The notes beneath the pieces are model-generated. The model was not told the origin of the DNA. It searched no databases and saw nothing but the letters and a program-made list of their open reading frames with translations. Of a stretch of 64,000 nt of DNA, positions 7,651 through 62,405 are shown one piece after another. The stretch spans positions 2,226,699 to 2,290,698 of the forward strand of contig OZ241375.1 of the NCBI GenBank assembly GCA_965200625.1. Reading direction: 5' to 3'. Position numbers and translations under genes: made by a program. Within the stretch, counting starts at the first letter, position 1. Each line of letters opens with the position of its first letter. This stretch comes from Dehalococcoidia bacterium (GTDB lineage: Bacteria > Chloroflexota > Dehalococcoidia > Bin125).

Positions 7651-8550
7651 ATGGCATCGGCGGAACTGCAGAAGGTCCTGCGCTTGATGGCGGAGCGCCC
7701 GCTCGGCGGCGGCGCGACTGACATTCAGGGGATGCGCGAGGGAATGGAGGCCGGTTCGTTTCCGGCGACGGAGGCGGCCGCGGTCACGGCAGTCGACGCG
7801 AACGGCGTGCCAGGCGAGTGGGTGACGGTCGCCGGGTCCGATCCCAACCGCCGCCTGCTCTACGTGCACGGCGGCGGCTATGTGCTCGGCTCACCGGTGA
7901 CCCACCGCCGACTCTGTGAGGGCATCGCCGCGGCGGGCGGCTGCGCCGTGCTCAACCTGGACTATCGGCTCGCGCCGGAGCATCCCTTCCCGGCGGCGGT
8001 TGATGACGCGATCGCGGGGCTGCAGTTTATCCAGGCCAACGGCCCCGACGGGGAAGGCGCGGCGGAGGCGGTCTTCGTCGCCGGCGACTCGGCCGGCGGC
8101 GGGCTGACCCTGGCGACGCTGCTCGCCGCCCGCGAGCGCGGAGTCGAGCAGCCGAACGCGGCGGTCGGGATTTCCGCCTGGACCGATCTGGCGATCACGG
8201 GCGAGTCGATTCAGACGCGGGCGGAGAATGACCCCTTGATCACGGATTCGTCGATGATCCACGTCATGGCGTCTGCCTACCTCGGCGACACGGCGGCGAC
8301 CGATCCGTTGGCCTCCCCGCTGTATGCCGACTACGCCGGGCTGCCGCCGCTGTTGTTGCAGGTCGGCGACGCCGAAGTGTTGCTGTCTGACACGACGCGG
8401 GTGACCGAGCGGGCGCGGGCGGCGGGCGTGGACGTGGTCGAGGAGGTCTGGGACGAGATGTTCCACGTCTGGCACGCGTTCGCGCCGATGCTGCCCGAGG
8501 GTCAGCAGGCGATTGAGCGGATCGGCGAGTTCATCCAACAGCACGCCTAG
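7651..8550 (+). CDS. Alpha/beta hydrolase fold-3 esterase/lipase (HSL family), paralog 1.
   Basis: LLYVHGGGYVLGS oxyanion-hole HGGG motif, LDYRLAPEHPFPAAVDDA and GDSAGGGL nucleophile elbow (GxSxG). Confidence 0.85.
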   Translation: MASAELQKVLRLMAERPLGGGATDIQGMREGMEAGSFPATEAAAVTAVDANGVPGEWVTVAGSDPNRRLLYVHGGGYVLGSPVTHRRLCEGIAAAGGCAVLNLDYRLAPEHPFPAAVDDAIAGLQFIQANGPDGEGAAEAVFVAGDSAGGGLTLATLLAARERGVEQPNAAVGISAWTDLAITGESIQTRAENDPLITDSSMIHVMASAYLGDTAATDPLASPLYADYAGLPPLLLQVGDAEVLLSDTTRVTERARAAGVDVVEEVWDEMFHVWHAFAPMLPEGQQAIERIGEFIQQHA

Positions 8551-8597
8551 CCGCGCCCGCGCCCGGTAGCGGTTGGAGCAACGGTCAGGAGCACGGG

Positions 8598-9518
8598 ATG
8601 CCTTCGCAGGAGTACTACGAGGTTGTTGAGGCGATGCGCAGCCAGGCCGCCAGCATGATTGAGGGCGAGCTGACGATCGAGCAGCAGCGCGCGGCGATGG
8701 AAGCGGGGTTTGCTTTTCCTCTGGAAGATGACCTCACCCTGACGGCGGTCGACGCCAACGGCGTGCCGGGCGAGTGGACGGCGCTGCCCGGCTCTGATCC
8801 CGATCGGCGCTTGCTGTACGTCCACGGCGGCGGCTACGTGCTGGGGTCGATCAAGACGCATCGGCGGCTGGTGGCGGACATATGCCGCGCCGCGGGCTGC
8901 GTCGCGCTGAGCCTCGACTATCGGCTCGCGCCCGAGCATCCCTTTCCCGCCGCCGTGGACGACGCGATTGCCGGGCTGGAGCACATCTGGGCGAACGGCC
9001 CGGATGGCCCGAGTGCGGCGAGTGCCGTCTTCGTGGCGGGCGACTCTGCCGGCGGCGGGCTGACGCTGGCGACCCTGGTCGCCGCGCGCGAGCGCGGGGT
9101 GCGGATGCCGAGCGCCGGGATCGGGTTGTCGCCGTGGGCTGATCTGGCCGCCGGCCCGGAGGAGTTGTCCGCGTTTGGACACGACGATCCGACGATCCCC
9201 GACAACACGACGGCGATCACCGCCTCGCAGGCCTGGGCGGCGATGTACGCCGGCGATGCGGATCGCGCAGATCCGCTGGTGTCGCCGCTGTTCGCCGACT
9301 ACGCCGGGCTGCCGCCGCTGCTGCTCCAGGCGGGCGCGGTGGAGATGATCGCCCGCGACACGACGCGCGTGGCGGAACGGGCGCGGGCGGCCGGTGTGGA
9401 GGTCGTCGAAGAACTCTGGGACGATATGTTCCACGTCTGGCAGGCGTTCGCGCCGATGCTGCCCGAGGGTCAGCAGGCGATTGAGCGGGTCGGCGAGTTC
9501 ATCAAGCAGCACGCCTGA
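8598..9518 (+). CDS. Alpha/beta hydrolase fold-3 esterase/lipase (HSL family), paralog 2 (tandem duplicate of 7651..8550).
   Basis: Same HGGGY, LDYRLAPEHPFPAAVDDAIAGL and VFVAGDSAGGGLTLATL motifs. Roughly 70% identical to the upstream copy by eye. Confidence 0.85.
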   Translation: MPSQEYYEVVEAMRSQAASMIEGELTIEQQRAAMEAGFAFPLEDDLTLTAVDANGVPGEWTALPGSDPDRRLLYVHGGGYVLGSIKTHRRLVADICRAAGCVALSLDYRLAPEHPFPAAVDDAIAGLEHIWANGPDGPSAASAVFVAGDSAGGGLTLATLVAARERGVRMPSAGIGLSPWADLAAGPEELSAFGHDDPTIPDNTTAITASQAWAAMYAGDADRADPLVSPLFADYAGLPPLLLQAGAVEMIARDTTRVAERARAAGVEVVEELWDDMFHVWQAFAPMLPEGQQAIERVGEFIKQHA

Positions 9519-9579
9519 CCGAGCCTCCAGGCCGACCTGGAGACGGAGGATCGTGTAGGGCAACGGGGGAGAAGCAGCG

Positions 9580-11403
9580 TTGTTCAGCGCCTGGTTCGCG
9601 TACTTCATTGGACGCTGGGAGGGGTACAACCTCCAGAAGCTGCGCGGGGACATCTTCGGCGGGGTGACTTCCGGAGTCGTCGCGCTGCCGGTCTCGCTGG
9701 CGTTGGGCGTGGCCGCAGTCTCGACCGCGGGCGGCGATGTTGGCCAGGGCGCGCTGGCCGGTCTGTACGGGGCGATCGCGGTCGGCGTCTGCGCCGCGTT
9801 GTTCGGCGGGACGCCGGCGCAGGTCTCCGGGCCGACGCCGCCGATGGCAATCGCGATGGCCGTGGTGGTCGCGCAGAAGGGGCTGGAAGAGGCCTTCGCG
9901 GTCGTCCTGCTGGCCGGGCTGTTCCAGATCGCGTTTGGCGTGCTGCGGGTCGGGCGGTTCATTTCGTACACGCCCTATTCGGTGATTTCGGGATTTATGT
10001 CGGGCATCGGCATGATCATCATCGTGATCCAGCTGCTGCCGTTCTTCGGCTTCCCCGTCCAGGCGGGACGGCTGACGGCGTCGCTGGAAGCGCTGCCCGA
10101 CGCGATTCGGGAACTCAACATTGACGCCTTCGGCGTGGCGCTGTTCACGCTGGGTCTGGTCGTGTTCTGGCCGCGCCGCTTCCGCGGCGTGATCCCGCCG
10201 ACGCTGGCGGCGCTGGTGCTGGGCACCGGCCTGAGCCTGCTCTGGCTGGACGGCGCGCCCACCATCGGCGACATTCCGACCGGTTTCCCCTCGCTTCAGT
10301 GGCCGGACTGGTCGCTTGACTTCGTGCTCGCGGTGATCGAGCCCGCGTTCATCATCGCGCTGCTGGGTTCAATCGACAGTCTGCTCACGTCGCTCGTGGC
10401 GGATTCGCTGACGCGCACGACGCACCGGCCGAATCGCGAGCTGTTCGGCCAGGGTCTGGGCAACACGCTCTCGGGCCTGATCGGCGGGCTGCCGGGCGCG
10501 GGGATGACGCTGACGACGGTGGTCAACGTCCGCGCCGGCGGCCGGACGCCGCTGGCGGGCATTCTGGTCGCGGTCGTGCTGCTGGCGCTGGCGATGGGCG
10601 GCGGCGCGATTGCGGAACCGATTCCCCACGCCGTGCTGGCCGGCATCCTGCTCAAAGTCGGCTGGGACATCATCGACTGGCGCTTCCTGCGCCGCATCCG
10701 CGACATTCAGGGCTCGCACCTGCTGGTCATGTTCATGACGGTGGTGCTGACGATGTTCGTCGATCTGGTCACGGCGGTAGCGATTGGCCTGATCGCGGCC
10801 GGGATGGCGAATGCGCTCCGCTCGGAACGGTTCGAGCTGGACAACGTGCTCTCGGTGCCGCTGCTCGACCTGAGCGGCGACGATCCGTACTCGGCGCGGA
10901 CGGGCCTGCTGGCGCTGCGCGGCCGCTTCTCGGTCGCCTCATCAAGCGCCCTGGTGCGGGCGATCACGCCCGACATCCAGGAGCACGAAGTGGTGATCTT
11001 CGACTTCTCGCGGACGACAGCGCTCGATGACAGCGCGGCGATGGTGATCAAGGATCTGGTCGAAGGCGCGACGGAGCAGGGCACGCAGAGCATTGCGATG
11101 GGTCTGGAACAGACGCCGTCGGTCGAGTCGGCGTTGGACTCGTTGGGCGCGCTCGACGACATCCCGCCGGAGCGGCGGGTCGAGACGCTGGTCGAAGCGC
11201 GCGAGTTGGCGGATGCGCTGCTCGCCGAGCGGGACGCGGCGGAGGCGGCGCAGGCGGCAGAGGCGGCACTCGAGACCGAGGCGGAAGCGACCGAGGCGGA
11301 AGCGACCGAGGCGGAAGCGACCGAGTCCGACGAGGCCGTTGAGGGTGACGAGGGCGAAGCAGAGGCAGAGGCGTCGGAGGAGTCGAGCAGCGCCAACAGC
11401 TAG
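9580..11403 (+). CDS. SulP-family anion transporter with a C-terminal STAS domain and an acidic EAEAT repeat tail.
   Basis: N-terminal LRGDIFGGVTSGVVALPVSLALG and multiple TM segments typical of SulP. STAS-like region VVIFDFSRTTALDDSAAMV. TTG start at 9580 with a GGGAGAAG RBS. The C-terminal (EAEAT)3 is encoded by a 15-bp x3 tandem repeat at ~11278-11325. Confidence 0.85.
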   Translation: MFSAWFAYFIGRWEGYNLQKLRGDIFGGVTSGVVALPVSLALGVAAVSTAGGDVGQGALAGLYGAIAVGVCAALFGGTPAQVSGPTPPMAIAMAVVVAQKGLEEAFAVVLLAGLFQIAFGVLRVGRFISYTPYSVISGFMSGIGMIIIVIQLLPFFGFPVQAGRLTASLEALPDAIRELNIDAFGVALFTLGLVVFWPRRFRGVIPPTLAALVLGTGLSLLWLDGAPTIGDIPTGFPSLQWPDWSLDFVLAVIEPAFIIALLGSIDSLLTSLVADSLTRTTHRPNRELFGQGLGNTLSGLIGGLPGAGMTLTTVVNVRAGGRTPLAGILVAVVLLALAMGGGAIAEPIPHAVLAGILLKVGWDIIDWRFLRRIRDIQGSHLLVMFMTVVLTMFVDLVTAVAIGLIAAGMANALRSERFELDNVLSVPLLDLSGDDPYSARTGLLALRGRFSVASSSALVRAITPDIQEHEVVIFDFSRTTALDDSAAMVIKDLVEGATEQGTQSIAMGLEQTPSVESALDSLGALDDIPPERRVETLVEARELADALLAERDAAEAAQAAEAALETEAEATEAEATEAEATESDEAVEGDEGEAEAEASEESSSANS

Positions 11404-21742: not shown

Positions 21743-23071
21743 ATGGCGTCGCGGTTTGGCCGCAACGACTGGGAAGCGGTGTTGCACCGCTGGACGGAGG
21801 CGGAACTGTTCGACGCCGAGACCGCCGCCGCGGTGCGCGCCTGGGAAGCGGAGCGCGAGGCGCAGGCATCGGCGGGCCGTCTGGTTGATTCGCTGTCGTA
21901 TCTGGGCGTCTCGATCGTCCTCGTCGGCGCGCTGCTGGCGGTCGGGCTGATGGATTCCAGCGAGCTCGGGACAATCGTTCTGCCCCTCCTCATCGGGCTG
22001 GCCGCCGCCTTGCTGGCGCGCATCGCCTGGCGCTCCGGGCTCCAGGCGCTGGCGGACGGCTTTGCGGCGAGCGGCGTCATCCTGCTGACGTTGGCGCTGG
22101 GGTTCGGCCTCGAGCGCGTTGACGACAGCGGCGGACAGTATGCGATCGGGTTCTTCCTGATCTGCCTCTGCGCGCTGCTCGTCGGCGGCGGGCTGGCGCG
22201 TCTGGCGCGTTCCCGACTCGCGGCCTTCCTGGCCGCCGTCGCCCTCTGTCTGATGCCGTTTTCGATCGCGGCGGACGACAACGCGCTGAACGTCCTCCGC
22301 TACGGAGGCGCGGGCGACTGGAGCGTCGGCTGGGAGTTGTGGGGGACGCTCGCGGCGGTCGTTGTGGTGGGTCTCGCCGCGCAGATCGCGATGCTGCGCC
22401 CGAGCCGCCTGCTCGACGCGGACGCCGCGCCCTGGGCGCGGCTCGGCGCGTCGCTGGCGACCGGCGGCGCGATTCTGTGGTTGGCCGAGTCGTCGCCCGA
22501 GGCGGCCCTCGACTGGATGTCGCTGCTCGCCGGTTGGCTCGTGACCGTGCTCGCCTTTCGCCAGAATCGGTTCGAGCTATTGCCGGCGTCGGCGTTGCTT
22601 CTGCTCGGTGCGCTCGTCGGCGGGCTCTCCGATCTCGACAGCGAGCTGCATCTCGGACTGACGGTCGTAGTGCTCTTCACGGCGCTGCAGGTGACGATCG
22701 TCGGCATGGCCGGCCCGCAGCTGCTGGGCGCGTTGGCCGAGCACTGGCTGCTGCCCTTCTGGCAGGCGGCGCTGCTGACAGGCGGTGTGGTCGCCGTGTC
22801 GATCCTCGCTGCCGACCACGCCGGGCTCGCCGCAATCGGGATCATCTGGGGACTCTTCCTGCTCGTCGCGGGAGTAGTCCGCCGCCAGCGCCTCGAGCTC
22901 TGCTTCGGCGCGGCGGGCGTCTACGGCACCGGCCTGGCGCTGATCCTCGGGCACCTGGAATCCAGCCTCGGCGCGGTGATCGCCACGCTCGCGCTGGGCC
23001 TGCTGATCGTCGCGGGCGCGATCATCTGGCGGCGGCAGCGCGGCGCGACCGTGGTCGAGGGCGCGTCATAG
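21743..23071 (+). CDS. Polytopic membrane protein of unknown function, paralog A. It has an N-terminal soluble helical domain.
   Basis: N-terminus NDWEAVLHRWTEAELFDAETAAAVRAWEAEREA followed by ~10 hydrophobic segments, and the C-terminus ends IIWRRQRGATVVEG. Confidence 0.7.
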   Translation: MASRFGRNDWEAVLHRWTEAELFDAETAAAVRAWEAEREAQASAGRLVDSLSYLGVSIVLVGALLAVGLMDSSELGTIVLPLLIGLAAALLARIAWRSGLQALADGFAASGVILLTLALGFGLERVDDSGGQYAIGFFLICLCALLVGGGLARLARSRLAAFLAAVALCLMPFSIAADDNALNVLRYGGAGDWSVGWELWGTLAAVVVVGLAAQIAMLRPSRLLDADAAPWARLGASLATGGAILWLAESSPEAALDWMSLLAGWLVTVLAFRQNRFELLPASALLLLGALVGGLSDLDSELHLGLTVVVLFTALQVTIVGMAGPQLLGALAEHWLLPFWQAALLTGGVVAVSILAADHAGLAAIGIIWGLFLLVAGVVRRQRLELCFGAAGVYGTGLALILGHLESSLGAVIATLALGLLIVAGAIIWRRQRGATVVEGAS

Positions 23072-23086
23072 CGGGTTGGGCATAAG

Positions 23087-24427
23087 GTGGAGTCGATGGC
23101 AGCGAACGAGCGGGACAAGCGGAACGAGTGGGACGCGGCGCTGGAGCGCTGGCGCGAGGCGGGCTTCGTCGAGGCGGAGACGGACGCAGCAATCCGCGAC
23201 TGGGAAGCGGCGCGCGGCGCAAAACCAGCCCCGCGAGGGCGCGGAGCCGTGGCGCTCTCCTACGTCGGCGTTTCGATCCTCCTGATCGGTCTGTTCACGC
23301 TGAATGAGCGGGTCGTAGACGGGCGCCCCGCCTGGATGGCGCTGCCGTTCGGGCTCGCGCTGGTCAGCGCGGCGCTGGCCTGGTGGAGCCGCCGGGCGGT
23401 GCTGGCCGAGCTCTCGGACTGCTTGGCCATCGTCACGATCATCATGGCGGCGGTGGGCGTGCTCGCGTTGCTTGATGAGGTCGGCGGCGGGGCGTTGGCG
23501 ATCGTCACGTTGGCGCTCAGTTTCTGCACCGTGCTGGTTGGCTCAGGGATGGCGTGGCTGGCGCGCTCGCCGCGGGCGGCCTTGCTGGCCGCGCTGGCCC
23601 TGACGGCGCTGCCGCTGGTGTTTGTAGTCGAGGGCGATGCGTTTGAGCTGGAGGCGCTCGACGACGGCGTGCAGGCGCTTGCCGGCTGGGTGCTGTGGGG
23701 CGCGTTCGCGGCAACGCTGGCGTTGGGCGGCGGCGCAATGTTCCTGCTGGAACGCCTCCAGCGGCTGGAGGCTGGGCTGCGGCAGTGGGCTCGGCTCGGG
23801 GCGTCCTTGGGAACCGCGTTTGCGATTCTGGCGCTGGCCAGTGTGGCTGGAGGACCGGCAATCGACTGGTTGGCGCTGTTGCTGAGTTGGATCCTCGCGG
23901 TCTGGGCTGTGCGCCGCGGGCAGGCGGAGCTGCTGCCAGCAGCGGGCTTGCTGTTGCTGGGCGCGCTGGTCGGCGGCTTGTCCGATCTGGACAGCGGCGC
24001 GCGGCTGGGGCTGACGATTGCCGCGCTGATCACGGCCCTGCAGCTGACTGCCCTGGAGCGGATTGGCCCGCGCATTCTGGACCGTCTCGGCGACGATTGG
24101 CTGACGCGGTGCTGGGAAGCGGCGCTGCTCGTTGGCGGCCTCGTCGGGGCGGTGTTCCTGGCGGAGCGCAGTCTGGAGCTGGCGAGCGTCGCGGTCGTCT
24201 GGGCGGTCGCGCTGCTGGTCGCGGGGGCGCTGCGGCAGCGCTGGCTGGAAGTCCTCCTCGGCGTGGCCAGCGTCTACGCCGTCGGGTTCACGCTCCTGAT
24301 CGCTCAGTTCGAGTCCGGGCTCGGTGAGGTGCTGGGCGTGCTGTTCGTCGGTTTGCTGGCGGTGGTGGGCGCGATCATCTGGCGGCGGCGGCAGCGCGGT
24401 TTGACACTGGTTACGGGTGACGCATAG
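23087..24427 (+). CDS. Polytopic membrane protein of unknown function, paralog B (tandem duplicate of 21743..23071).
   Basis: N-terminus NEWDAALERWREAGFVEAETDAAIRDWEAARGA and C-terminus IIWRRRQRGLTLVTG mirror the upstream paralog. Shared internal motifs include LLLGALVGGLSDLDS. Confidence 0.7.
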   Translation: MESMAANERDKRNEWDAALERWREAGFVEAETDAAIRDWEAARGAKPAPRGRGAVALSYVGVSILLIGLFTLNERVVDGRPAWMALPFGLALVSAALAWWSRRAVLAELSDCLAIVTIIMAAVGVLALLDEVGGGALAIVTLALSFCTVLVGSGMAWLARSPRAALLAALALTALPLVFVVEGDAFELEALDDGVQALAGWVLWGAFAATLALGGGAMFLLERLQRLEAGLRQWARLGASLGTAFAILALASVAGGPAIDWLALLLSWILAVWAVRRGQAELLPAAGLLLLGALVGGLSDLDSGARLGLTIAALITALQLTALERIGPRILDRLGDDWLTRCWEAALLVGGLVGAVFLAERSLELASVAVVWAVALLVAGALRQRWLEVLLGVASVYAVGFTLLIAQFESGLGEVLGVLFVGLLAVVGAIIWRRRQRGLTLVTGDA

Positions 24428-51908: not shown

Positions 51909-52967
51909 ATGGCAAGCGTGGACGACCAGCAGACCCCCGACGTGCTGGACGAAGTCGATGACGACGTGGTCGAAGGCGACGCGGAGCCGTTCGACGAACC
52001 GGCTGCGACGGCGGTCGACAACGGCGCGGGCGCCAGTACGCCGATCACGCTGAGCGCGGCGGTGATGGAGTACTTCAGCTGGGAGGAAGAGCGCGAGGCC
52101 AAGCGGACGCGGCGCAAGACGACCAACAGCGCCCGCTCGCGGCGGAGCGTGTTCGTGCTCGACAAACCCGCGCGCGAGGCGGTCGCCCGCTTCCTCGGCC
52201 ACTTCGGCCCGGACACGCCGCTCGCCGAATTGTCGCCGAAGTCGATGGAGAGCTTCCAGGAGACGATCGGCGTCAAGGCCATGGGCCTGGAGGCGCGGCT
52301 GCAGCCGGTGAAGGAATTCCTGCGCTATTGCTGGAAGCAGGAATACACCGTCAGCTTCGACGCGGCGGGGCGGGCGACCGCCCAGAACCTGGGCAACTTC
52401 CTGCGGATCAAGCGTCCGGCCACGGTCGTCAGGGGTAAGTCTCAGTTCCAGCATGAGCAGGCGGAGACGTTTGAGATGACGGCGGAGGGTCTGCAAAATC
52501 TGCACAAGGAGTTGGAGGAGCTGAACGAGAAGATGCCCAAGCTGGTGGAGGACGTCGCGGCGGCGCGCGAAGACAAGGACATCCGCGAGAACGCCCCGCT
52601 GGAAGAAGCGCGCAAGGACCTGGGGGAGAATCAGTCGCGGATCAATGATCTCCATTACCAGATCGCGCGCGCCGTCGTCCCCGAGCAGCGAGCGAGCGAC
52701 CGCGCCCAGCTGGGCAGCGTGGTCTCGGTCGTCGAGCTCGACGAGCACGGCGGGTCTCTGGGCGAGGCCAGAGAGTACACTTTGGTGGGAACCACAGAGG
52801 CGAACGCAGCGGAGCGGCGGATCTCGGTCGAGAGCCCGCTGGGCCGCGGGCTGCTCGATCAGCCTGCCGACCGGCAGATTGAAATCCAGGCCCCCAACGG
52901 CCGCAGGCGGTTCCGCTTGCTCTCGGTCAAGGACAGCCCGCCTGCCGAGCCGAGCGAAAGCGACTGA
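51909..52967 (+). CDS. GreA/GreB-family transcription elongation factor homolog with a ~190 aa N-terminal extension.
   Basis: C-terminal half LQNLHKELEELNEKMPKLVEDVAAAREDKDIRENAPLEEARKDLGENQSRINDLHYQIARAVV...ISVESPLGRGLL...IEIQAPNGRRRFRLLSV matches the GreA coiled-coil plus FKBP-like domains. The N-terminal part (acidic stretch, then FLGHFGPDTPLAELSPKSMESFQETIGVKAMGLEARLQPVKEFLRYCW) resembles an integrase-type SAM-like/core-binding fold. Confidence 0.7.
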   Translation: MASVDDQQTPDVLDEVDDDVVEGDAEPFDEPAATAVDNGAGASTPITLSAAVMEYFSWEEEREAKRTRRKTTNSARSRRSVFVLDKPAREAVARFLGHFGPDTPLAELSPKSMESFQETIGVKAMGLEARLQPVKEFLRYCWKQEYTVSFDAAGRATAQNLGNFLRIKRPATVVRGKSQFQHEQAETFEMTAEGLQNLHKELEELNEKMPKLVEDVAAAREDKDIRENAPLEEARKDLGENQSRINDLHYQIARAVVPEQRASDRAQLGSVVSVVELDEHGGSLGEAREYTLVGTTEANAAERRISVESPLGRGLLDQPADRQIEIQAPNGRRRFRLLSVKDSPPAEPSESD

Positions 52968-54343: not shown

Positions 54344-55480
54344 ATGCCCACGCTGGAGTCGGCGAGGCAGAAGCGCGGCAGTGTCCTTCAGCAGATCGCT
54401 GAAGCGTCCTACGGCTATCCCAACGCCGAGTTCCCCGACCGCGAAGTGACGACCAACTTCCCCGCGGAACAGCTCGGCGTGCGGGTGCGCTCGGGCGGCT
54501 GGCTCTACCCCGACATCGTCGTGACCGATGAGCCGGGCCACTTCATCGCCCTCGCCGGCGACCTCGCGCTGACCCATGAGGTCAACAACGAGACCGCGCT
54601 CGAGCGCTGGAAGCCGCTCGCCCAGACCGCGCCGCTCGTGCTCTACGTGCCGATGGGCCAGAGCGGCCGCGCGATCCGCCTCTGCCGGCTGAACGGGATC
54701 AAGCTGCACAAGCTGGTCGCCTACCGCCAGCGGCCGGCCGGTTTCGGGATCGACCTGCAGGAGGCCTACAGCGGCCCCGACCTGTTCAAACCGATCGCCG
54801 CCCTGCTGCCGCCGGCGCTGCGGCCGATGGCCTACCGCGATGAGCGCAAGGTCGTCGCGGACAGCTACCTTCAGCCTTTGCCGGCCGCGCGCAGCGGCGA
54901 CGTGCCCGCGCTGGCCGCGCCCGCTCCGCAGCCGGCGGCGACGCTGGCCCTGCCCTCCGGGCTGGGAGACGAGCACGGCGACGCCCACGCCGATCATGCC
55001 GGCCATGACTCACCCGAGACGCATCTGCCGCCGCCGAGTCTTGCGCCCGTGCTCTTCGCGCTGGGACTGATCGTGACCGCCGCCGGCGGGATTTTCGTCG
55101 GCGAGCTGCTCAGCGTCGGGATCACGCTGATCTTCCTCTCGGCGGTGCGCTGGTTCATGGAAGACATGGGCTACTTCGAGGCCGGCGGGCCGGCGGAATT
55201 CCGCCAGCATCCGCTGCCGGTGATGCCCGACGTCTCGCCGCCGCCCGGCATCCATATGCCGCCCCCTAGCCTGTCCCCGCTCCTCTTCGCCGTCGGCCTG
55301 ATCATGACGGGCGCCGGCGCTGTCTTCACCGACCAGGTGTTGGGCGCCGGGATCACGCTGCTCGTCTTCGGCGGCGTTGGCTGGTTCCTGGAAGACATTC
55401 GCTACTTTGAGGAGCCGGTCCACGACGAGCACCACAGCGAGCATGACGCGGAGGCCCCGCTCATGCCGAACGCGGACTAA
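54344..55480 (+). CDS. Cox-locus-associated membrane protein. It has an N-terminal soluble domain plus an internally duplicated 2-TM module with His-rich linkers, function unknown.
   Basis: Two consecutive ~55 aa repeats: HLPPPSLAPVLFALGLIVTAAGGIFVGELLSVGITLIFLSAVRWFMEDMGYFE and HMPPPSLSPLLFAVGLIMTGAGAVFTDQVLGAGITLLVFGGVGWFLEDIRYFE. They are flanked by GDEHGDAHADHAGHD and VHDEHHSEHDAE. The gene lies immediately upstream of ctaC. Confidence 0.6.
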   Translation: MPTLESARQKRGSVLQQIAEASYGYPNAEFPDREVTTNFPAEQLGVRVRSGGWLYPDIVVTDEPGHFIALAGDLALTHEVNNETALERWKPLAQTAPLVLYVPMGQSGRAIRLCRLNGIKLHKLVAYRQRPAGFGIDLQEAYSGPDLFKPIAALLPPALRPMAYRDERKVVADSYLQPLPAARSGDVPALAAPAPQPAATLALPSGLGDEHGDAHADHAGHDSPETHLPPPSLAPVLFALGLIVTAAGGIFVGELLSVGITLIFLSAVRWFMEDMGYFEAGGPAEFRQHPLPVMPDVSPPPGIHMPPPSLSPLLFAVGLIMTGAGAVFTDQVLGAGITLLVFGGVGWFLEDIRYFEEPVHDEHHSEHDAEAPLMPNAD

Positions 55481-55550: not shown

Positions 55551-56900
55551 ATGGCATATCAACGGCTGTGGCGAACCCGATTTGGTCGGCTCACGCTCGT
55601 CATGGGCGCCGCCGCGCTGGGGCTGCTGGCGCTCTCCGGCCTGGCCGGCGCGCAGGTCGCCCTGCCTGAGGCGGTGACCGAGCAGGGCGACTCGATTCGC
55701 GCCCTGTTCTTCGTCGTCCTCGCCATTGGCGTGATCGTCTTCATCATCGTCGAGGCGATGATCCTCTGGGTCGTCTTCCGCTACAAGCGCAAGTCCGACG
55801 AAGAACTGCCCACCCAGGTCGCCCACAACACCACCGCCGAGATCCTCTGGACCGGCATCCCCACAGTCATCGTCGTCGTGCTCTTCATCGTCTCCTTGTT
55901 CGTCCTCCAGGACATCCAGGCCGCTGCTGACCCGGATGAGGAAGTCGTGATCGTTGACGTCCAGGGCCGCCAGTGGGCCTGGGCGTTCAACTACGCCGTC
56001 CCGCTCGGCACCGAGTTGGCCGAAAACATCTCGGCGGATCCGGCCCAGACGGAGATTCACCTGGAAGACCCGTCGCTGGTCGTGCCGTTCATGACGCTCA
56101 AGCTCGGGGTGGAGCACATGCGCGTCGTGGCGCGCACCGGCGATGTGGTGACCGTCGAGCGCGCGGTCAACGGCACCGTGCCCATCCGGCACCGCGCCGG
56201 GACGGCGGTGATGCGTTCCTTCAACGGCACCGACACGGTCGCCGAGGGCCGCCTCCAGTCCGCCGACAACACGCCCATCGTGACGGTGCCGGTCGGCACC
56301 ATGATCCGCTTCAACATCGCCTCGGCCGACGTCCTGCACGCCTTCTACACGCCGCAGTTCCTGACCAAGCTCGACGCGGTACCCGGCCGCGTGCAGACGC
56401 TCTGGGTGCGGATCACCGACGCCGGCGACTTCATCAGTCAGTGCGCCGAGTTCTGCGGCCGCGACCACGCGCGGATGATCTACACCGTCCGCGCCCTGCC
56501 GCCGGCTGACTATGACGCCTGGTTCACGGCCAAGGCGGGCGAAGCGCCCGCGCCGATCGAGGGCGACTTCGGCGGCGAGGAAGAGGTGGAGCAGGAAGAG
56601 GGCGCGATTGGCAACCCGACCAATGGCCAGAACCTCTTCTTCTCGCTCGGTTGCAACGTCTGCCACGGCGACACCGGCGAGGGTCTGGTCGGGCCGACCA
56701 TTGCCCAGACCATCGTCTCGCTGGAGCGGGTGATCCAGCAGTACCGCGATCCGCTGGAGACGATGCAGGAGTTCCCGCCGGACAAGGTCTCGGACGAGGA
56801 AATCGCCGATATCTACGCCTGGCTGCAAACGGTCCCGCGCCCGCCGGACGCGGCCGTGATTCCGAGCAAACTGGCTGAACTGGTTGAAGCCGGCGGCTAA
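55551..56900 (+). CDS. ctaC: Cytochrome c oxidase subunit II fused to a C-terminal cytochrome c domain (caa3-type).
   Basis: Signal/TM MAYQRLWRTRFGRLTLVMGAAALGLL. CuA site HAFYTPQF...SQCAEFCGRDHARM. C-terminal heme c motif CNVCH. RBS GAGAAGGGAG before ATG 55551; the ORF-track start at 55377 is an upstream extension. Confidence 0.9.
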   Translation: MAYQRLWRTRFGRLTLVMGAAALGLLALSGLAGAQVALPEAVTEQGDSIRALFFVVLAIGVIVFIIVEAMILWVVFRYKRKSDEELPTQVAHNTTAEILWTGIPTVIVVVLFIVSLFVLQDIQAAADPDEEVVIVDVQGRQWAWAFNYAVPLGTELAENISADPAQTEIHLEDPSLVVPFMTLKLGVEHMRVVARTGDVVTVERAVNGTVPIRHRAGTAVMRSFNGTDTVAEGRLQSADNTPIVTVPVGTMIRFNIASADVLHAFYTPQFLTKLDAVPGRVQTLWVRITDAGDFISQCAEFCGRDHARMIYTVRALPPADYDAWFTAKAGEAPAPIEGDFGGEEEVEQEEGAIGNPTNGQNLFFSLGCNVCHGDTGEGLVGPTIAQTIVSLERVIQQYRDPLETMQEFPPDKVSDEEIADIYAWLQTVPRPPDAAVIPSKLAELVEAGG

Positions 56901-56948: not shown

Positions 56949-58676
56949 ATGGCGACACTGGCGGGGGCGCAGACCAGACCATATGCCGGCGCAAATGCCT
57001 GGCGCGCCGTGCTCGAGTGGCTGACCACGGTCGACCACAAGAAGATCGGCATCATGTACCTCTGGACGGCCGGGGCCTTCGGCCTCGTGGGCATGGCCTT
57101 CTCCCTCGTCATGCGCACCGAGCTCGCCCAGACCGGCACGATTATCTCGGCGGAGACCTACAACTCGATCTTCACAATGCACGGCAGCGTGATGATCTTC
57201 CTCTTCCTGTTGCCCGTCGGCGCGGCCTTCATGAACTACTCGATGCCGCTGCAAATCGGCGCGCTCGACATGGCCTTCCCGCGCATCAACGCGCTCTCCT
57301 TCTGGATTTTCCTCTTCGGCGGCGTGCTGCTCACGCTCAGCTTCGCGGTCGAGGGCGGCACCGCCTCCGCCGGCTGGACCGCCTACCCGCCCGTCACGCT
57401 CGACACCGGCAACAACGCCGAACCGCCCGGCGTCGGGATGGACATGTGGCTGGTCGGTGTGATCCTGTTGGGTCAGGCGTCGATCTTCGGGTCGGTGAAC
57501 TTCTTGGTCACGATCTTCAAGATGCGCGCGCCAGGGATGACCATGTGGCGGCTGCCGCTGTTCACATGGACGACGCTCGTCACCGGCCTGCTGATCCTCC
57601 TCTCGACCCCCGTCCTCGCCGCCGCCCTCGTGCTCGGATTCATTGACCGCAACGGCGCGGAGGGCGCATTCTTCGACCCCGCCGCCGGCGGCCAACCGCT
57701 GCTCTGGCAGAACCTCTTCTGGTTCTATTCGCACCCCGCCGTCTACATCATGATCTTGCCCGCGATGGGCATCGTCTCGGACGTCTTCGGCGTCTTCACG
57801 CGACGGCCGGTCTTCGGCTACCGCTCGATGGTGCTGGCGCTGGTCGGGATTGGGCTGCTCGGCTTCATCGTCTGGGCGCACCATATGTTCACGACCGGCG
57901 GCGTCTTCCTGCCCTTCTTCATGGGCGCGACCTTCCTGATCGCGGTGCCGACCGGGGTCAAGATGTTCAACTGGATCGCGACCATGTGGCGCGGCTCCAA
58001 CATTTTCCCGACTGCGATGCTGTTCAGCGTCGGCTTCCTCATGCTCTTCCTGATCGGCGGGATCACCGGCGTCTTCCACGCGGCGGTGCCGGTCGACTTC
58101 GCGCTGCACGACACCTACTTCGTCGTCGGCCACTTCCACTACACGATGTCCATCGCCGCGACCTTCGGCTTCCTCGCCGGCTGCTACTACTGGTTCCCGA
58201 AGATGTTCGGCAAGTTCATGAACGAGGGTCTGGGCAAGCTGCACTTCTGGCTGGTCTTCATCGGCGTCAACCTCGTCTTCTTCACCCAGCTGCTGCTCGG
58301 CCTGGACGGAATGCCGCGGCGGATCAACGACTACGTCGACAACCCCGGCTGGGAACTGATGAACATGCTGATCACGATCGGCGCGTTCATCTCCGCAGCG
58401 GGGATGATGGTCTTCCTCTACAACGTCTTCTACTCGCTCAAGTGGGGCGAGCGGGCCGGCGCGGACCCCTGGGAGGGCACCACGCTGGAGTGGGCGACGA
58501 CCTCGCCGCCGCCGCCGCACAACTTCGACTCGCTGCCCGAGATTCGCTCCGAGCGGCCGCTCTTCGACCTGCGCTTCGGTGAGAAGCTGCAGGACGACCC
58601 GCACTACCACGTCAACAACGGCCATAACGGCGGCGGCGCGAAACAGCCCTCCGCGCGTGCGCGGGAGGAGGGCTAA
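56949..58676 (+). CDS. ctaD: Cytochrome c oxidase subunit I (heme-copper oxidase catalytic subunit).
   Basis: MHGSVMIFLFLLP..., WAHHMFTTG and GHFHY...; the canonical 12-TM subunit I with its His ligands. 575 aa. Confidence 0.95.
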   Translation: MATLAGAQTRPYAGANAWRAVLEWLTTVDHKKIGIMYLWTAGAFGLVGMAFSLVMRTELAQTGTIISAETYNSIFTMHGSVMIFLFLLPVGAAFMNYSMPLQIGALDMAFPRINALSFWIFLFGGVLLTLSFAVEGGTASAGWTAYPPVTLDTGNNAEPPGVGMDMWLVGVILLGQASIFGSVNFLVTIFKMRAPGMTMWRLPLFTWTTLVTGLLILLSTPVLAAALVLGFIDRNGAEGAFFDPAAGGQPLLWQNLFWFYSHPAVYIMILPAMGIVSDVFGVFTRRPVFGYRSMVLALVGIGLLGFIVWAHHMFTTGGVFLPFFMGATFLIAVPTGVKMFNWIATMWRGSNIFPTAMLFSVGFLMLFLIGGITGVFHAAVPVDFALHDTYFVVGHFHYTMSIAATFGFLAGCYYWFPKMFGKFMNEGLGKLHFWLVFIGVNLVFFTQLLLGLDGMPRRINDYVDNPGWELMNMLITIGAFISAAGMMVFLYNVFYSLKWGERAGADPWEGTTLEWATTSPPPPHNFDSLPEIRSERPLFDLRFGEKLQDDPHYHVNNGHNGGGAKQPSARAREEG

Positions 58677-58678
58677 TC

Positions 58679-59299
58679 ATGGCCGCCGGCACGATCGCGC
58701 CCAAGCGCGTCCACCCCGTCCGCAGCTTCCTCGTCGGCGACGAGCCGATGACGACCGGCCTGTGGGGGATCATCTTCTTCATCTTCTCCGAGATCATGTT
58801 CTTCGCGGGACTGATCGCGGCGATGCTCGCCCTGCACAGCGACACGCTGTTCTGGGAACCGACCAACGGCGCCCACCGCGTTGAAGGCGACCACCTGTTG
58901 CCGATCCTGTTCACCGTGCTCCTGGTCAGCACCTCGATCCCGATGCAGTTCGCCGCCTTCGCGATCCGCAAGGGCAACCGCAAGGCGATGCTGATCAACA
59001 TGACCATCGTCCTGGTCGTCGGCACCGCCTTCATCATCAACCAGTACTTCGAGTGGGAGCACGCCGGCTTCGGCATCTCCGACGGCCCCTACGCGGCCAG
59101 CTTCTACACCCTGACCGGCTTCCACGGCGCGCACGTGATCGGCGGACTCGTCTTCATCTTCGCGCAGTGGCTGCGCGGGCTGCTCGGACACTTCGACGCC
59201 AAACGCAACACGGCGATTGAGGCCGCGACGCTCTACTGGCACTTCGTGGGCTTCGTATGGCTGCTGGTCATCTTCCCGCTCGTCTTCTTCCTCAGCTGA
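58679..59299 (+). CDS. ctaE: Cytochrome c oxidase subunit III.
   Basis: LWGIIFFIFSEIMFFAGL..., TGFHGAHVIGG and LYWHFVGFVWL are typical of subunit III. Confidence 0.9.
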   Translation: MAAGTIAPKRVHPVRSFLVGDEPMTTGLWGIIFFIFSEIMFFAGLIAAMLALHSDTLFWEPTNGAHRVEGDHLLPILFTVLLVSTSIPMQFAAFAIRKGNRKAMLINMTIVLVVGTAFIINQYFEWEHAGFGISDGPYAASFYTLTGFHGAHVIGGLVFIFAQWLRGLLGHFDAKRNTAIEAATLYWHFVGFVWLLVIFPLVFFLS

Positions 59300-59312: not shown

Positions 59313-60323
59313 GTGAGGAGGAGCCCGCGAGCGCTGGCCGCGCTCGTCGCGGTTGTTGGCGCGCTCGCGGCGCTGCTCGCGCCCGCGGTGGCGGCGGCCC
59401 ACGACGGCCGCTACGCCGAATCGGGCGAGCTGCTCACCGCGCTGGGCATCTGGAGCCTCGACGGACCCGGCCTCGCCATCGTCCTGATCGTCGGCGGACT
59501 CTACGTCTGGGGCTACTACCGCCTGCGCCGCGACTCGCCCCACTTCCACTTTCCCCGCTGGCACGCCTGGTGTTTCGCCGCCGGCTGGCTGATCATGCTG
59601 CTCGGGCTGATGTCGCCGGTGGACACCTACTCGGACGACCTGTTCTGGGTGCACATGATCCAGCACGTGATGATCACGATGCTGGTCGCGCCGCTGATGC
59701 TGCTCGGCGCGCCGGCGACGCTGGCGCTGCGCGCCGCCTCGCCGCGCATTCGCTCGACCTACCTGATTCCCTTCCTCAACTCCCGGCTCGTGCGCTGGCT
59801 GACCTGGCCGCCGGCGGCGCTGGCGATCTACATCGCCAGCGTCTGGAGCTGGCACTGGCCCGACGCCTACGACGCCGCCATCGCTTCGGAGGCGGTGCAC
59901 TTTGCCGAGCACGGCGTTTTTCTCTTCGGCGCGCTGCTGCTCTGGTGGTTGGTGATCGGCGTCGACGCGACGCGCCTGCGTCCGCACCACGTCTGGCGCT
60001 GCGCCCTGCTGGTCGTCGCGATCCTGCAGAACATCGCCCTCGGCCTGATCCTGATCAACGTCGGCGAGGCGGTCTACGACACCTACGCGACGGCCGCCGC
60101 CGTGCGCGAGTGGGGCCCGGACGCGCTGCTTGACCAGCGCATCGGCGCGGGGATCATGTGGGTGCCAGGCTCGATGATGTTCGCGCTGGCGATCATCATC
60201 ACGGTCTACTACTGGGCGGAGCGTGAGGGCTTCAAGGATCGCCGCAACGACACGGTGCGCGATATGCAAATCCGCGTGCACGGGGAGATCCCCACGCTCG
60301 GCCCGCGCCCCGGCGAGCACTAG
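59313..60323 (+). CDS. ctaG: Caa3-type cytochrome oxidase assembly factor CtaG (Caa3_CtaG family).
   Basis: VHMIQHVMITMLVAPLMLLGAPATLALRA... is the conserved core of the CtaG/Caa3 assembly family. ~7 TM. Confidence 0.75.
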   Translation: MRRSPRALAALVAVVGALAALLAPAVAAAHDGRYAESGELLTALGIWSLDGPGLAIVLIVGGLYVWGYYRLRRDSPHFHFPRWHAWCFAAGWLIMLLGLMSPVDTYSDDLFWVHMIQHVMITMLVAPLMLLGAPATLALRAASPRIRSTYLIPFLNSRLVRWLTWPPAALAIYIASVWSWHWPDAYDAAIASEAVHFAEHGVFLFGALLLWWLVIGVDATRLRPHHVWRCALLVVAILQNIALGLILINVGEAVYDTYATAAAVREWGPDALLDQRIGAGIMWVPGSMMFALAIIITVYYWAEREGFKDRRNDTVRDMQIRVHGEIPTLGPRPGEH

Positions 60324-60411: not shown

Positions 60412-61479
60412 GTGGCAGCGATGAGCGGCATGAGCAGATTTCAGAGCGTCGGTTTCGGACTGGTGATCGGTCTGCTCGTCCTGACGGCGTTGGGCGGCAT
60501 CGTCCGCGTGACCGGCTCCGGGCTCGCCTGCCCCGATTGGCCGGCCTGCTACGGCGGCTTGATTCCGACGGGCGACTTCGGCGAGTTCGCCGCGCGCCAG
60601 GTCTGGTTTGAGTGGACCCACCGCCTGGTCGCCGCGATCATGGGCTTCATCATCATCGGCTACGCCTACGTTGCCTGGCGGCGCTACCGCGCGCAGCGCC
60701 GCGTCTGGCTGCCGGCGGCGCTGGCGGTGCCGTTCCTCGCCCTGCAGATCGTGCTCGGCGGCCTGACCGTGACGGAGCGGCTCGAGGAGCTGATCGTCAC
60801 GCTGCACCTCGCCACCGCGATGCTGATCCTGATGCTGGTCGCCGTGTCCTGGCTGGGCAGCTTCCCCTGGCGCGTCGTGACCAGCGCGGACGAAGCGCCG
60901 CTGGGTACCGACGCGGCCTCGCAGGCGCGCACCTACGCGCGGATCGCGCTGCTCATCGCCGTGCTCGTCTACGCGGTCGTCGTGGTCGGTTCCTACGTGA
61001 CCCATGTCGGCGCGGGTCCGGACGCGGGCGCGCACGTCGGCCCCGGCGGCGCGGCCTGCGGCAATCAGTGGCCGCTCTGCTACGGCGGACTCTTCCCCGA
61101 GGGCGAGTACGCTCAATGGAACATGGGACACCGATTCCTGGTCGCGATCGGCGGAGTCGCGCTGTTTGGCGCGGCGATGGGCGTGGTCATGCTGCGACCG
61201 CGCGCGCGCGGCCTGACCTTCCTGGTGCACGGTGCGGCGACGCTCTATCTGATCCAGATCTTCATCGGCGCGGCGATGATCTGGATCAACTTCGACGCCT
61301 GGGCGCGGGCGCTGCATCTGTCGATGGGCTCGATAACCTGGCTGCTCGCGGTCGCCGCCGCGCTGGGCGCGTACTACCGCGCCGGCGGACTGCGCGCCGG
61401 CAGCACAGCCGCCGCCGCGCTGCCCACAGTCAACACGCCCGCAGGGACGCCGGTCTCGGAGAGCGAGGGCAACGGATGA
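60412..61479 (+). CDS. ctaA: Heme A synthase (COX15/CtaA).
   Basis: VRVTGSGLACPDWPACYG, WTHRLVA and a second half with CGNQWPLCYG plus His-containing helices. Confidence 0.85.
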   Translation: MAAMSGMSRFQSVGFGLVIGLLVLTALGGIVRVTGSGLACPDWPACYGGLIPTGDFGEFAARQVWFEWTHRLVAAIMGFIIIGYAYVAWRRYRAQRRVWLPAALAVPFLALQIVLGGLTVTERLEELIVTLHLATAMLILMLVAVSWLGSFPWRVVTSADEAPLGTDAASQARTYARIALLIAVLVYAVVVVGSYVTHVGAGPDAGAHVGPGGAACGNQWPLCYGGLFPEGEYAQWNMGHRFLVAIGGVALFGAAMGVVMLRPRARGLTFLVHGAATLYLIQIFIGAAMIWINFDAWARALHLSMGSITWLLAVAAALGAYYRAGGLRAGSTAAAALPTVNTPAGTPVSESEGNG

Positions 61480-62405
61480 CCGAACGTCCGCTTACGCTGC
61501 CGCGCCCCGCGTCGCTCCCGAGTTCGCGCCGGTCGCTGGAACTGGCGCGCGGCTTCTGGGAGCTGACCAAGCCGGGCATCATCGGCCTGCTGCTGGTCAC
61601 GACCGTGCCGACGATGATCGTCGCCGCCAACGGCTGGCCGCGCGACAGCTTCGCCGACGGCCTCGCGCTGATCCTCATGACCCTGCTGGGCGGCGTCCTG
61701 ACCGCCGGCGGCGCGAACACGTTCAACCAGTGGTTCGACCGCGATATCGACGCGATCATGGAGCGCACCGCCGGGCGCCCGCTGCCGTCAGGCCTGATCC
61801 AGCCCTGGCAGGCGCTGGCCTGGGGCGTCCTGCTGGCGACGCTCGGCGGCGTCCAGCTGGCGCTCATGGTCAACCTGCTGGCGGCGCTGCTCGCCGAGGC
61901 GGCGGTGCTCTTCTACGTCTTCGTCTACACGATCTGGCTCAAGCGCTCGACCACGCAGAACATCGTGATCGGCGGCGCGGCCGGCTCGATTCCGCCGCTC
62001 GTCGGCTGGGCGGCGGTGACCGGCGAGGTCACCTGGACGCCGTTCATCCTTTTCCTCGTGATCTTCATGTGGACGCCGCCGCACTTCTGGGCGCTGGCGC
62101 TCAAGTACCGCGACGACTACGCCCGCGCCGACGTGCCGATGCTGCCCGTCGTCTCGGGCGAGCGCGAGACGCGCAAGCAGCTGCTGATCTACTCGGTCGG
62201 CCTGGTAGCGGTCAGCCTGCTCGGGCCGCTGGGCGGACATCTGAGCTGGTGCTACGAGACGACCTGCGCGATCGCGGGCGCGGGCTTCATCTGGATCGCC
62301 TGGCAGGTCTGGCGCGAGCAAGCGCCGCCGATGCGGATCTTCTTCGCCTCCATCGCCTATCTCTTCATCGTCTTCGCCGCCGTCGGACTCGACGTGCTCG
62401 TCTAG
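61476..62405 (+). CDS. ctaB: Protoheme IX farnesyltransferase (heme O synthase).
   Basis: ATG 61476 overlaps the ctaA stop (ATGA). MTERPLTL...GFWELTKPGIIGLLLVTT...NTFNQWFDRDIDAIMERTAGRPLPSG...TPPHFWALA is the UbiA-family heme O synthase signature. In the ORF track it appears only as the 3' part of a longer out-of-context ORF. Confidence 0.9.
   Translation: MTERPLTLPRPASLPSSRRSLELARGFWELTKPGIIGLLLVTTVPTMIVAANGWPRDSFADGLALILMTLLGGVLTAGGANTFNQWFDRDIDAIMERTAGRPLPSGLIQPWQALAWGVLLATLGGVQLALMVNLLAALLAEAAVLFYVFVYTIWLKRSTTQNIVIGGAAGSIPPLVGWAAVTGEVTWTPFILFLVIFMWTPPHFWALALKYRDDYARADVPMLPVVSGERETRKQLLIYSVGLVAVSLLGPLGGHLSWCYETTCAIAGAGFIWIAWQVWREQAPPMRIFFASIAYLFIVFAAVGLDVLV

Follow-up and report, generated by a model that had tools for sequence, protein, structure and literature searches.

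What part, if any, does a protein play in a cytochrome c oxidase when its gene stands directly before the oxidase genes? This question is raised by an open reading frame (ORF) at positions 54344-55480 of a 64,000-nucleotide stretch of DNA from a Dehalococcoidia bacterium (contig OZ241375.1, positions 2,226,699 to 2,290,698; the whole stretch is referred to here as the window). The ORF encodes 378 amino acids (aa) and is followed by the genes for a caa3-type (A-family) cytochrome c oxidase. The original prediction, made from the DNA sequence of the window, proposed that the protein either substitutes for subunit IV, as a fused pseudo-subunit IV, or delivers copper or haem by means of its His-rich segments. 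The explanation favoured here, to which a probability of about 70% is assigned, is that the protein is a structural subunit of the caa3 oxidase, i.e., a CtaF-type carrier of the helices that are missing from subunit III, with a cytoplasmic domain attached. It would be a two-module, membrane-anchored subunit of the adjacent enzyme.

Subunit III keeps the enzyme stable in turnover and gives the D proton pathway's cytoplasmic entrance its shape. It is modular: helices I-II can be part of COX3 itself, can be fused to subunit I (in quinol oxidases and in Thermus), or can be carried on CtaF (in Actinobacteria). The locus described here adds a Chloroflexota form, in which the hairpin of helices I-II is duplicated, both copies have the COX3 signature, and the pair anchors appended domains in the membrane.

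The protein and its tandem repeats

The ORF has a G+C content of 0.73, 0.46 and 0.90 at the three codon positions, which is a coding signature and agrees with a genuine gene in a genome whose G+C content is about 68%. The parts of the protein are as follows.

54344..55480 (+): whole ORF (378 codons and a stop); putative CtaF-like subunit of the oxidase, with a cytoplasmic domain at its N-terminus
54344..54871 (+): soluble domain at the N-terminus, aa 1-176; AlphaFold2 model, predicted order alpha-beta-beta-beta-alpha-beta-alpha-beta-beta
54872..55012 (+): disordered Pro/Ala-rich linker, aa 177-223 (about 47 aa); predicted local distance difference test (pLDDT) score below 50
54965-55009 (+): His/Asp/Glu cluster GDEHGDAHADHAGHD, aa 208-222, at the C-terminal end of the Pro/Ala linker
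55013..55180 (+): repeat 1, aa 224-279; motif H-L-P-P-P-S-L-A-P, two transmembrane (TM) helices, then R-W-F-M-E-D; hairpin like COX3 helices I-II
55181..55243 (+): inter-hairpin linker, aa 280-300; predicted cytoplasmic, pLDDT below 50
55244..55411 (+): repeat 2, aa 301-356; motif H-M-P-P-P-S-L-S-P, two TM helices, then G-W-F-L-E-D; corresponds to TM helices 3-4 of CtaF
55412..55477 (+): His/acidic tail at the C-terminus, aa 357-378, EPVHDEHHSEHDAEAPLMPNAD; predicted cytoplasmic, pLDDT below 50

The two repeats (aa 224-279 and aa 301-356) can be aligned over 56 residues with no gap, at a BLOSUM62 score of 181, compared with 29 ± 5.7 for shuffled sequences (500 shuffles, highest score 58). The period of the repeat is 77 aa, with a conserved core of about 56 aa, and both hydropathy and the AlphaFold2 model give two hydrophobic helices per copy (234-248 and 255-279 in the first; 311-325 and 332-356 in the second). 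A second His/Asp/Glu cluster, VHDEHHSEHDAE (aa 359-370), lies on the C-terminal side of the repeats. Thus, the ORF, the tandem repeats of two TM helices each and the His/Asp/Glu clusters, all of which had been read from the sequence in the original prediction, are borne out by self-alignment, hydropathy and modelling, as is the soluble N-terminal domain, which is folded, comprises about 176 aa and has pLDDT values of 80-92.

Kinship of the repeats with COX3 and CtaF

The origin of the repeats was sought with a hidden Markov model (HMM) of the hairpin, built from 26 units of diverse homologues and searched against all sequences in the PDB. The model found the same region in subunits of several well-studied oxidases: R. 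sphaeroides COX3 at aa 8-65 (E 1.1e-4), mitochondrial COX3 at aa ~6-62 (E 2.7e-4 to 0.012), the two additional helices at the C-terminus of B. subtilis QoxB at aa 579-623 (E 9e-5), the Thermus caa3 I+III fusion at aa 546-600 (E 0.06) and mycobacterial CtaF at aa 89-126 (E 0.38). An HMM of the double hairpin reached COX3 at E 1.1e-5, with aa 7-66 of the R. sphaeroides protein aligned to the second half of the profile. The first half of the profile aligns with residues 578-638 of QoxB and with the first half of CtaF, and the profile as a whole aligns with residues 24-130 and 17-131 (of 139) of mycobacterial CtaF proteins (E 0.004 and 0.01). Of 23 matches of the double-hairpin model at E <= 1, 20 are to these oxidase proteins and fall at the corresponding position in each.

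Shared by the repeats and COX3 are a His, followed where the first helix begins by Pro-x-Pro-Ser-x-x-Pro, and Trp-x-x-(Glu/Asp)-Asp beyond the second helix. In COX3 their counterparts are the H..PSPWP and WWRD motifs, although the Trp of PSPWP is not conserved in the repeats. Nearly every homologue with two HxPxPS motifs has them about 72-91 aa apart. The Pfam model of CtaF, PF12270, is matched by 41 of 43 family members at E <= 1 (best E 5e-7), and its positions 80-125 align to aa 305-350 of the window protein; precomputed PF12270 matches exist for two members of the family (P0071 and P0079) and for relatives from Limnocylindria. When the model of the whole protein was compared with known structures using Foldseek, the best matches, though weak, were COX3 and CtaF chains (5j4z_BC, 6hwh_S, 8hcr_H and 7q21_F). 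Sub-threshold matches of the whole protein to DUF7541, DUF3040 and SidA in Pfam and NCBIfam were set aside as low-complexity or TM matches.

Judged from these profiles, both repeats are copies of subunit III helices I-II, and the module of four TM helices is a homologue of CtaF. This kinship of the repeat to COX3 goes beyond the original prediction. The proposed pseudo-subunit IV is upheld in substance by the CtaF-related module, and is better described as a split and duplicated N-terminus of subunit III. The relation to CtaF holds at the level of the family, as the window protein itself lies below the cut-off of PF12270. COX4_pro (PF03626) has no match at E <= 0.1 in this protein or in any other gene of the locus.

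Comparison with known subunits makes clear what is shared and what is particular to the window protein. Actinobacterial CtaF (PF12270; M. smegmatis 6ADQ/6HWH, M. tuberculosis 8HCR, C. glutamicum 7Q21) likewise has four TM helices, which are collinear with those described here, has the COX3 helix I motif in its second hairpin, is partnered by a CtaE with five TM helices and is encoded beside ctaC. The window protein departs from CtaF in several respects: the COX3 signature (HxPPPS..P ... W.xED) is preserved in both of its hairpins, which share 50% identity; a cytoplasmic extension of about 220 aa and His/acidic tails are attached to the module; and its host belongs to the Chloroflexota (Dehalococcoidia), not to the Actinobacteria. 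COX3 with seven TM helices (PF00510; R. sphaeroides 1M56 chain C, bovine 1V54 chain C) resembles the repeats in its hairpin, which has the same sequence motif and a similar length (E 1e-5 to 3e-3, residues ~6-66), likewise starts on the cytoplasmic (N) side and has there a conserved His and Pro-Ser. It differs in that the hairpin of the window protein is encoded apart from helices III-VII, upstream of ctaC, is present twice, and has Ala or Ser in place of the Trp of PSPWP. The same hairpin is found on another polypeptide in helices XIII-XIV of QoxB (6KOB/6KOC; 578-638, E 9e-5) and in the Thermus I+III protein (2YEV 540-604, E 0.003) and is thereby shown to be a mobile module among oxidase subunits; there it is single and fused to subunit I, whereas in the window it is duplicated and fused to a soluble domain. 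The locus thereby offers a clear view of how a CtaF-type 'subunit IV' could have arisen from COX3.

The oxidase locus and its short subunit III

The genes that follow the ORF are those of an oxidase locus.

55551..56900 (+): ctaC, caa3-type subunit II with a C-terminal cytochrome c domain (COX2_TM, COX2, Cytochrome_CBB3; CoxB TIGR02866)
56949..58676 (+): ctaD, subunit I of the type with 12 TM helices, without the extra C-terminal hairpin (COX1 E 4e-152; TIGR02891 above cut-off)
58679..59299 (+): ctaE, short subunit III, 206 aa, helices III-VII only (COX3 profile)
59313-60323 (+): Caa3_CtaG (Pfam), oxidase assembly
60412-61479 (+): ctaA (Pfam), among the assembly and haem A synthesis genes
61476-62405 (+): ctaB (Pfam), among the assembly and haem A synthesis genes

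The product of ctaE has five TM helices: its aa 27-199 match positions 75-251 of the 258 positions of the COX3 profile, so that positions 1-74 are missing. The C-terminal 95 aa of CtaD are hydrophilic. The gene described here is separate from that for helices III-VII, being two genes upstream of ctaE, and the two are not one polypeptide. The intergenic gaps from ctaC to ctaB are at most 88 nucleotides and therefore leave no space for a further gene. The earlier observation that the locus has no recognisable subunit IV gene holds: there is no match of the COX4_pro type and no room for another gene. As the gap between the ORF and ctaC is 70 nucleotides, with no terminator-like site predicted within it, the two genes are likely to be co-transcribed. 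Rfam and tRNA scans of the window found nothing.

In ctaC, about 110 aa lie between the second TM helix (which ends at about aa 174) and the match to the periplasmic COX2 domain (which begins at aa 288), a spacing which, set against the Pfam and NCBIfam models, points to an insertion.

A precedent for the division of subunit III between two polypeptides comes from M. smegmatis, in which CtaE and CtaF together form subunit III, CtaF supplying helices 1-2, and in which the face formed by CtaE and CtaF contacts complex III and adjoins the mouth of the D pathway (PMC8361435). By analogy, the C-terminal module of four TM helices of the window protein would dock onto the five-helix CtaE and onto CtaD, and hairpin 2 would probably occupy the place of the missing helices I-II, thereby completing subunit III.

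Homologues and their gene neighbourhoods

The full-length family comprises about 80 clusters with 37-100% identity, labelled Chloroflexota or 'hypothetical protein'. In a survey of loci, with the full-length alignment as query and one genome per GTDB species, in which only the Dehalococcoidia clade was sampled, the gene was found in 62 species, all of them Dehalococcoidia or Chloroflexota metagenome-assembled genomes. The genes ctaC-ctaD-ctaE lie directly downstream in all 61 species-level loci for which downstream DNA is available. The annotation of the clusters from these species, which are now 'hypothetical protein', could follow from the present assignment.

The linkage to oxidase genes, whose absence from homologues would have told against the original prediction, extends to distant relatives with other architectures. 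In Limnocylindria, relatives such as P0100 and P0103 comprise a TM helix, the double hairpin with the same spacing, a further TM helix and a C-terminal periplasmic cupredoxin, and their genes lie directly after coxII-coxI-coxIII or adjoin Caa3_CtaG. This linkage is independent support for an association of the double hairpin with oxidases. The Limnocylindria proteins differ from the window protein in that their addition is a periplasmic domain at the C-terminus, whereas that of the window protein is a cytoplasmic domain at the N-terminus; the hairpins of the two are about 30-35% identical. The identity between the repeats of one protein is 51-59%, compared with 32-34% between the Dehalococcoidia and Limnocylindria families in all four pairings. 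Repeat-by-repeat orthology between the two families was considered, and the identities gave no signal for it; independent duplication and concerted evolution are therefore not distinguishable.

The hairpin-cupredoxin genes of Limnocylindria (e.g. that of P0100 at 8001-9104 of locus L003, and also those of P0082-P0107 and of locus L005) come directly after coxII-coxI-coxIII and an ORF of 59 aa, with a redoxin gene downstream of them. The protein looks like a blue-copper electron carrier that is tethered to the oxidase via a CtaF-like anchor; a parallel is seen in caa3 oxidases, which carry a fused cytochrome c. Another apparent variant, a fusion with the TM region of COX2 (P0081; 567 aa, 8001-9704 of locus L004), was rejected, as ctaC and ctaG are each split into two ORFs in that contig; an error of frame in a long-read assembly (a frameshift), rather than a natural fusion, is the probable cause. 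A search of the literature for CtaF in Chloroflexi found nothing.

Several points weigh against the assignment of the protein as a subunit of the oxidase. The match of the window protein to PF12270 has 18.3 bits (E 0.0026), which is below the Pfam cut-off of 26.9 bits; matches to CtaF itself are marginal (E 0.004-0.4); and the confidence of the AlphaFold2 model is low in the TM part (pLDDT 55-70). The assignment does not account for the presence of two COX3-like hairpins. The 62 syntenic loci belong to one Dehalococcoidia clade in which the upstream genes for GreA and citrate synthase are conserved too, so that the synteny amounts to a single observation and is weak evidence by itself. The N-terminal domain, as described below, is not confined to oxidases: it occurs free beside genes for biotin-dependent carboxylases, and fused to a ferredoxin. 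The F. johnsoniae oxidase works with a subunit III of five TM helices and no substitute for helices I-II (PMC8361435); the fit of the CtaF-like module with the short ctaE is therefore suggestive of a partnership rather than proof of one. Membership of the complex is thus deduced from sequence and gene context, and the protein is to be regarded as a putative subunit.

An alternative that retains the CtaF-like anchor at the face of subunit III is that the extra hairpin and the appended domain make contact with a partner complex, for instance bc-type complex III or alternative complex III, i.e., that the protein is an adaptor for a supercomplex or for an electron donor. The contacts within the M. 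smegmatis III2-IV supercomplex run via CtaE and CtaF (PMC8361435), the Limnocylindria relatives tether a cupredoxin to the double hairpin on the periplasmic side, and one of these relatives is encoded near genes for a Rieske protein and cytochrome b. The window locus itself has no adjoining complex III genes within the part examined, and the domain appended here is cytoplasmic and not redox-active, which makes such a role unlikely for the window protein.

Topology and the His-rich segments

The window protein has no signal peptide and begins with a folded domain, and therefore its N-terminus should be cytoplasmic. Helix I of COX3 begins on the N side in solved structures. Hairpin 1 of the Limnocylindria forms is preceded by an Arg-rich segment, and their periplasmic cupredoxin by one further TM helix, a layout which agrees with both hairpins running in-out-in. 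By homology and topology, the cluster before the hairpins, the inter-hairpin linker and the C-terminal tail would then all be cytoplasmic, so that the N-terminal domain and the His/acidic linker and tail would lie together on the membrane's N side.

The composition of the His-rich segments was compared among 41 homologues. The number of His residues varies from 0 to 5 before hairpin 1 and from 2 to 7 in the tail; the tail has 0-11 Asp/Glu residues; the segments are strongly acidic and contain no Cys; and the His residues are not aligned in position.

These features bear on the second role that had been proposed, in which the protein is not a stoichiometric subunit but an assembly factor or metallochaperone whose His-rich segments deliver copper (or zinc, nickel or haem). 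His/Asp/Glu clusters do flank the hairpins, the tail has at least two His residues in 41 of 41 homologues, and the operon includes the assembly genes ctaG, ctaA and ctaB. CuA, however, is loaded in the periplasm, and a chaperone for it is hard to reconcile with segments that are predicted to be cytoplasmic, that have no Cys or Met motif and whose His residues are conserved neither in position nor in number. The window protein has no match in Pfam or NCBIfam to the chaperone families Sco, PCuAC, Cox11, Caa3_CtaG or Surf1, the operon already carries its own Caa3_CtaG, and it is in its TM hairpins, homologues of structural subunits, that the protein is conserved. Delivery of copper or haem is thus distinctly unlikely, and of the two roles in the original prediction it is the pseudo-subunit that stands. 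In a structural subunit of the oxidase, the stretches of His and carboxylate residues could plausibly form a proton-collecting surface near the entrances of the D and K pathways, a suggestion that draws on a summary in Chem. Rev. and on general knowledge of proton uptake.

The N-terminal domain

The CtaF-type split of subunit III is already known; the new element here is the cytoplasmic domain. Its AlphaFold2 model is of good confidence (pLDDT 81.6, predicted TM-score 0.74). The domain has no match in Pfam, in NCBIfam or among PDB sequences, including in a search of the PDB sequences with an HMM of the domain. A Foldseek comparison with the PDB returned mostly folds like those of restriction endonucleases, weakly (E at least 0.05, TM-score at most 0.41), and a model of the domain on its own gave fold matches that were no better. 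The order of elements predicted by the model includes the alpha-beta-beta-beta-alpha-beta core of the PD-(D/E)XK proteins (e.g. BstEII 9IBQ, SfsA 4DAV, 3IJM, YaeQ 7TCB), and a conserved Pro-Asp stands at the start of its second strand, but no match to these proteins in structure or sequence is significant. Residues that are invariant in the domain include D57, E63, H66, H78, E79, R88 and W89, and the wider family has the motifs Tyr-Pro-Asp-Ile-Val-Val, Val-Glu-(Thr/Ser) and Leu-Tyr-Val-Pro.

Of the catalytic residues of the PD-(D/E)XK proteins, only the Asp of 'PD' is invariant in the domain. The catalytic Lys is missing, as the wider family has Val-Glu-(Thr/Ser) at that position and the window family has Leu-Ala-Leu, in which the Glu has been lost too; nuclease activity is therefore unlikely. 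Unlike the PD-(D/E)XK proteins, the domain in the window protein is tethered to the membrane, at what would be a respiratory enzyme. On the basis of the model, it weakly resembles a restriction-endonuclease-like module of a non-catalytic kind. The idea that the protein as a whole is a membrane-anchored PD-(D/E)XK nuclease or nucleic-acid binder, unrelated to respiration and merely beside the cta genes, would accord with the best structural matches of the domain (restriction enzymes, SfsA, YaeQ, lambda exonuclease and Can2), with the invariant Pro-Asp that starts a beta strand across the wider family and with the synteny of the upstream GreA and citrate synthase genes, but is highly improbable given the weakness of those matches, the absence of the (D/E)xK motif (in the window family even of its Glu), the homology of the TM module to oxidase subunits and the occurrence, in oxidase operons elsewhere, of the domain fused to COX2 or a COX3-like hairpin.

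In a profile search that covered 1.84 billion representatives, the domain and the hairpin module were seen to occur independently of each other. The family of the domain comprises at least 6278 clusters (90% identity) at E <= 0.001. The domain is thus a separate and widespread module, which is a further point beyond the original prediction. It is attached to A-family oxidases in three different ways. In the window family, it is N-terminal to a CtaF-like double hairpin. In P0124, it is C-terminal to a single COX3-like hairpin, and the gene lies directly after COX1, a small ORF and COX3. In P0179 and P0383, it is fused to the N-terminus of subunit II, and the operon also holds cupredoxin, COX1, COX4_pro, COX3 and CtaG.

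Outside these operons, the domain follows an FdxA-type 4Fe-4S ferredoxin and two TM helices (P0128 and P0154), and it exists in a free form of 140-166 aa, encoded directly after genes for a carboxyltransferase, an HMGL-like/PYC_OADA protein and a biotin carrier. The free form is found in three Chloroflexota contigs, in none of which a link to oxidase genes is visible:

L007 6001-6423: free N-terminal domain
L009 6001-6423: free N-terminal domain
L010 6001-6501: free N-terminal domain

A gene for a small HAD/NIF-like phosphatase lies directly after the free domain in the first two of these contigs and about 1 kb downstream of it in the third. In the locus of the ferredoxin fusion P0154 (L075 6001-7212), the neighbouring genes are those for TauE, YceI, a redoxin and OsmC.

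It can be proposed, tentatively, that A-family haem-copper oxidases have in this domain (about 140-176 aa) a cytoplasmic accessory domain not described before, which has become attached to them on at least three separate occasions. No bacterial oxidase is known to carry such a module on its N side. As part of a structural subunit of the oxidase, the domain would sit where the D and K proton pathways open, an N-side addition that would be unusual among bacterial terminal oxidases, and its candidate roles would be docking, regulation or assembly. If this is true, the oxidase has a dedicated N-side module, e.g. a regulator or a docking site that couples the activity of the terminal oxidase to a cytoplasmic signal or partner. 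If the domain regulates or docks something, aerobic respiration would have a new level of control in this lineage, which is abundant, uncultured, marine and associated with sponges.

Further features of the window

The GreA/GreB-like gene upstream (51909-52967, + strand, 352 aa) has its GreA domains only at aa 190-341; the N-terminal extension of about 180 aa that precedes them is unexplained, and homologues in related loci are called at 274-295 aa. The GC skew of the window is positive over 1-54 kb and negative from about 54 to 60 kb, with the peak of the cumulative skew near 52-54 kb. The segment from 22001 to 24000 has an unusually strong negative AT skew (-0.32) and a G+C content of 0.71.

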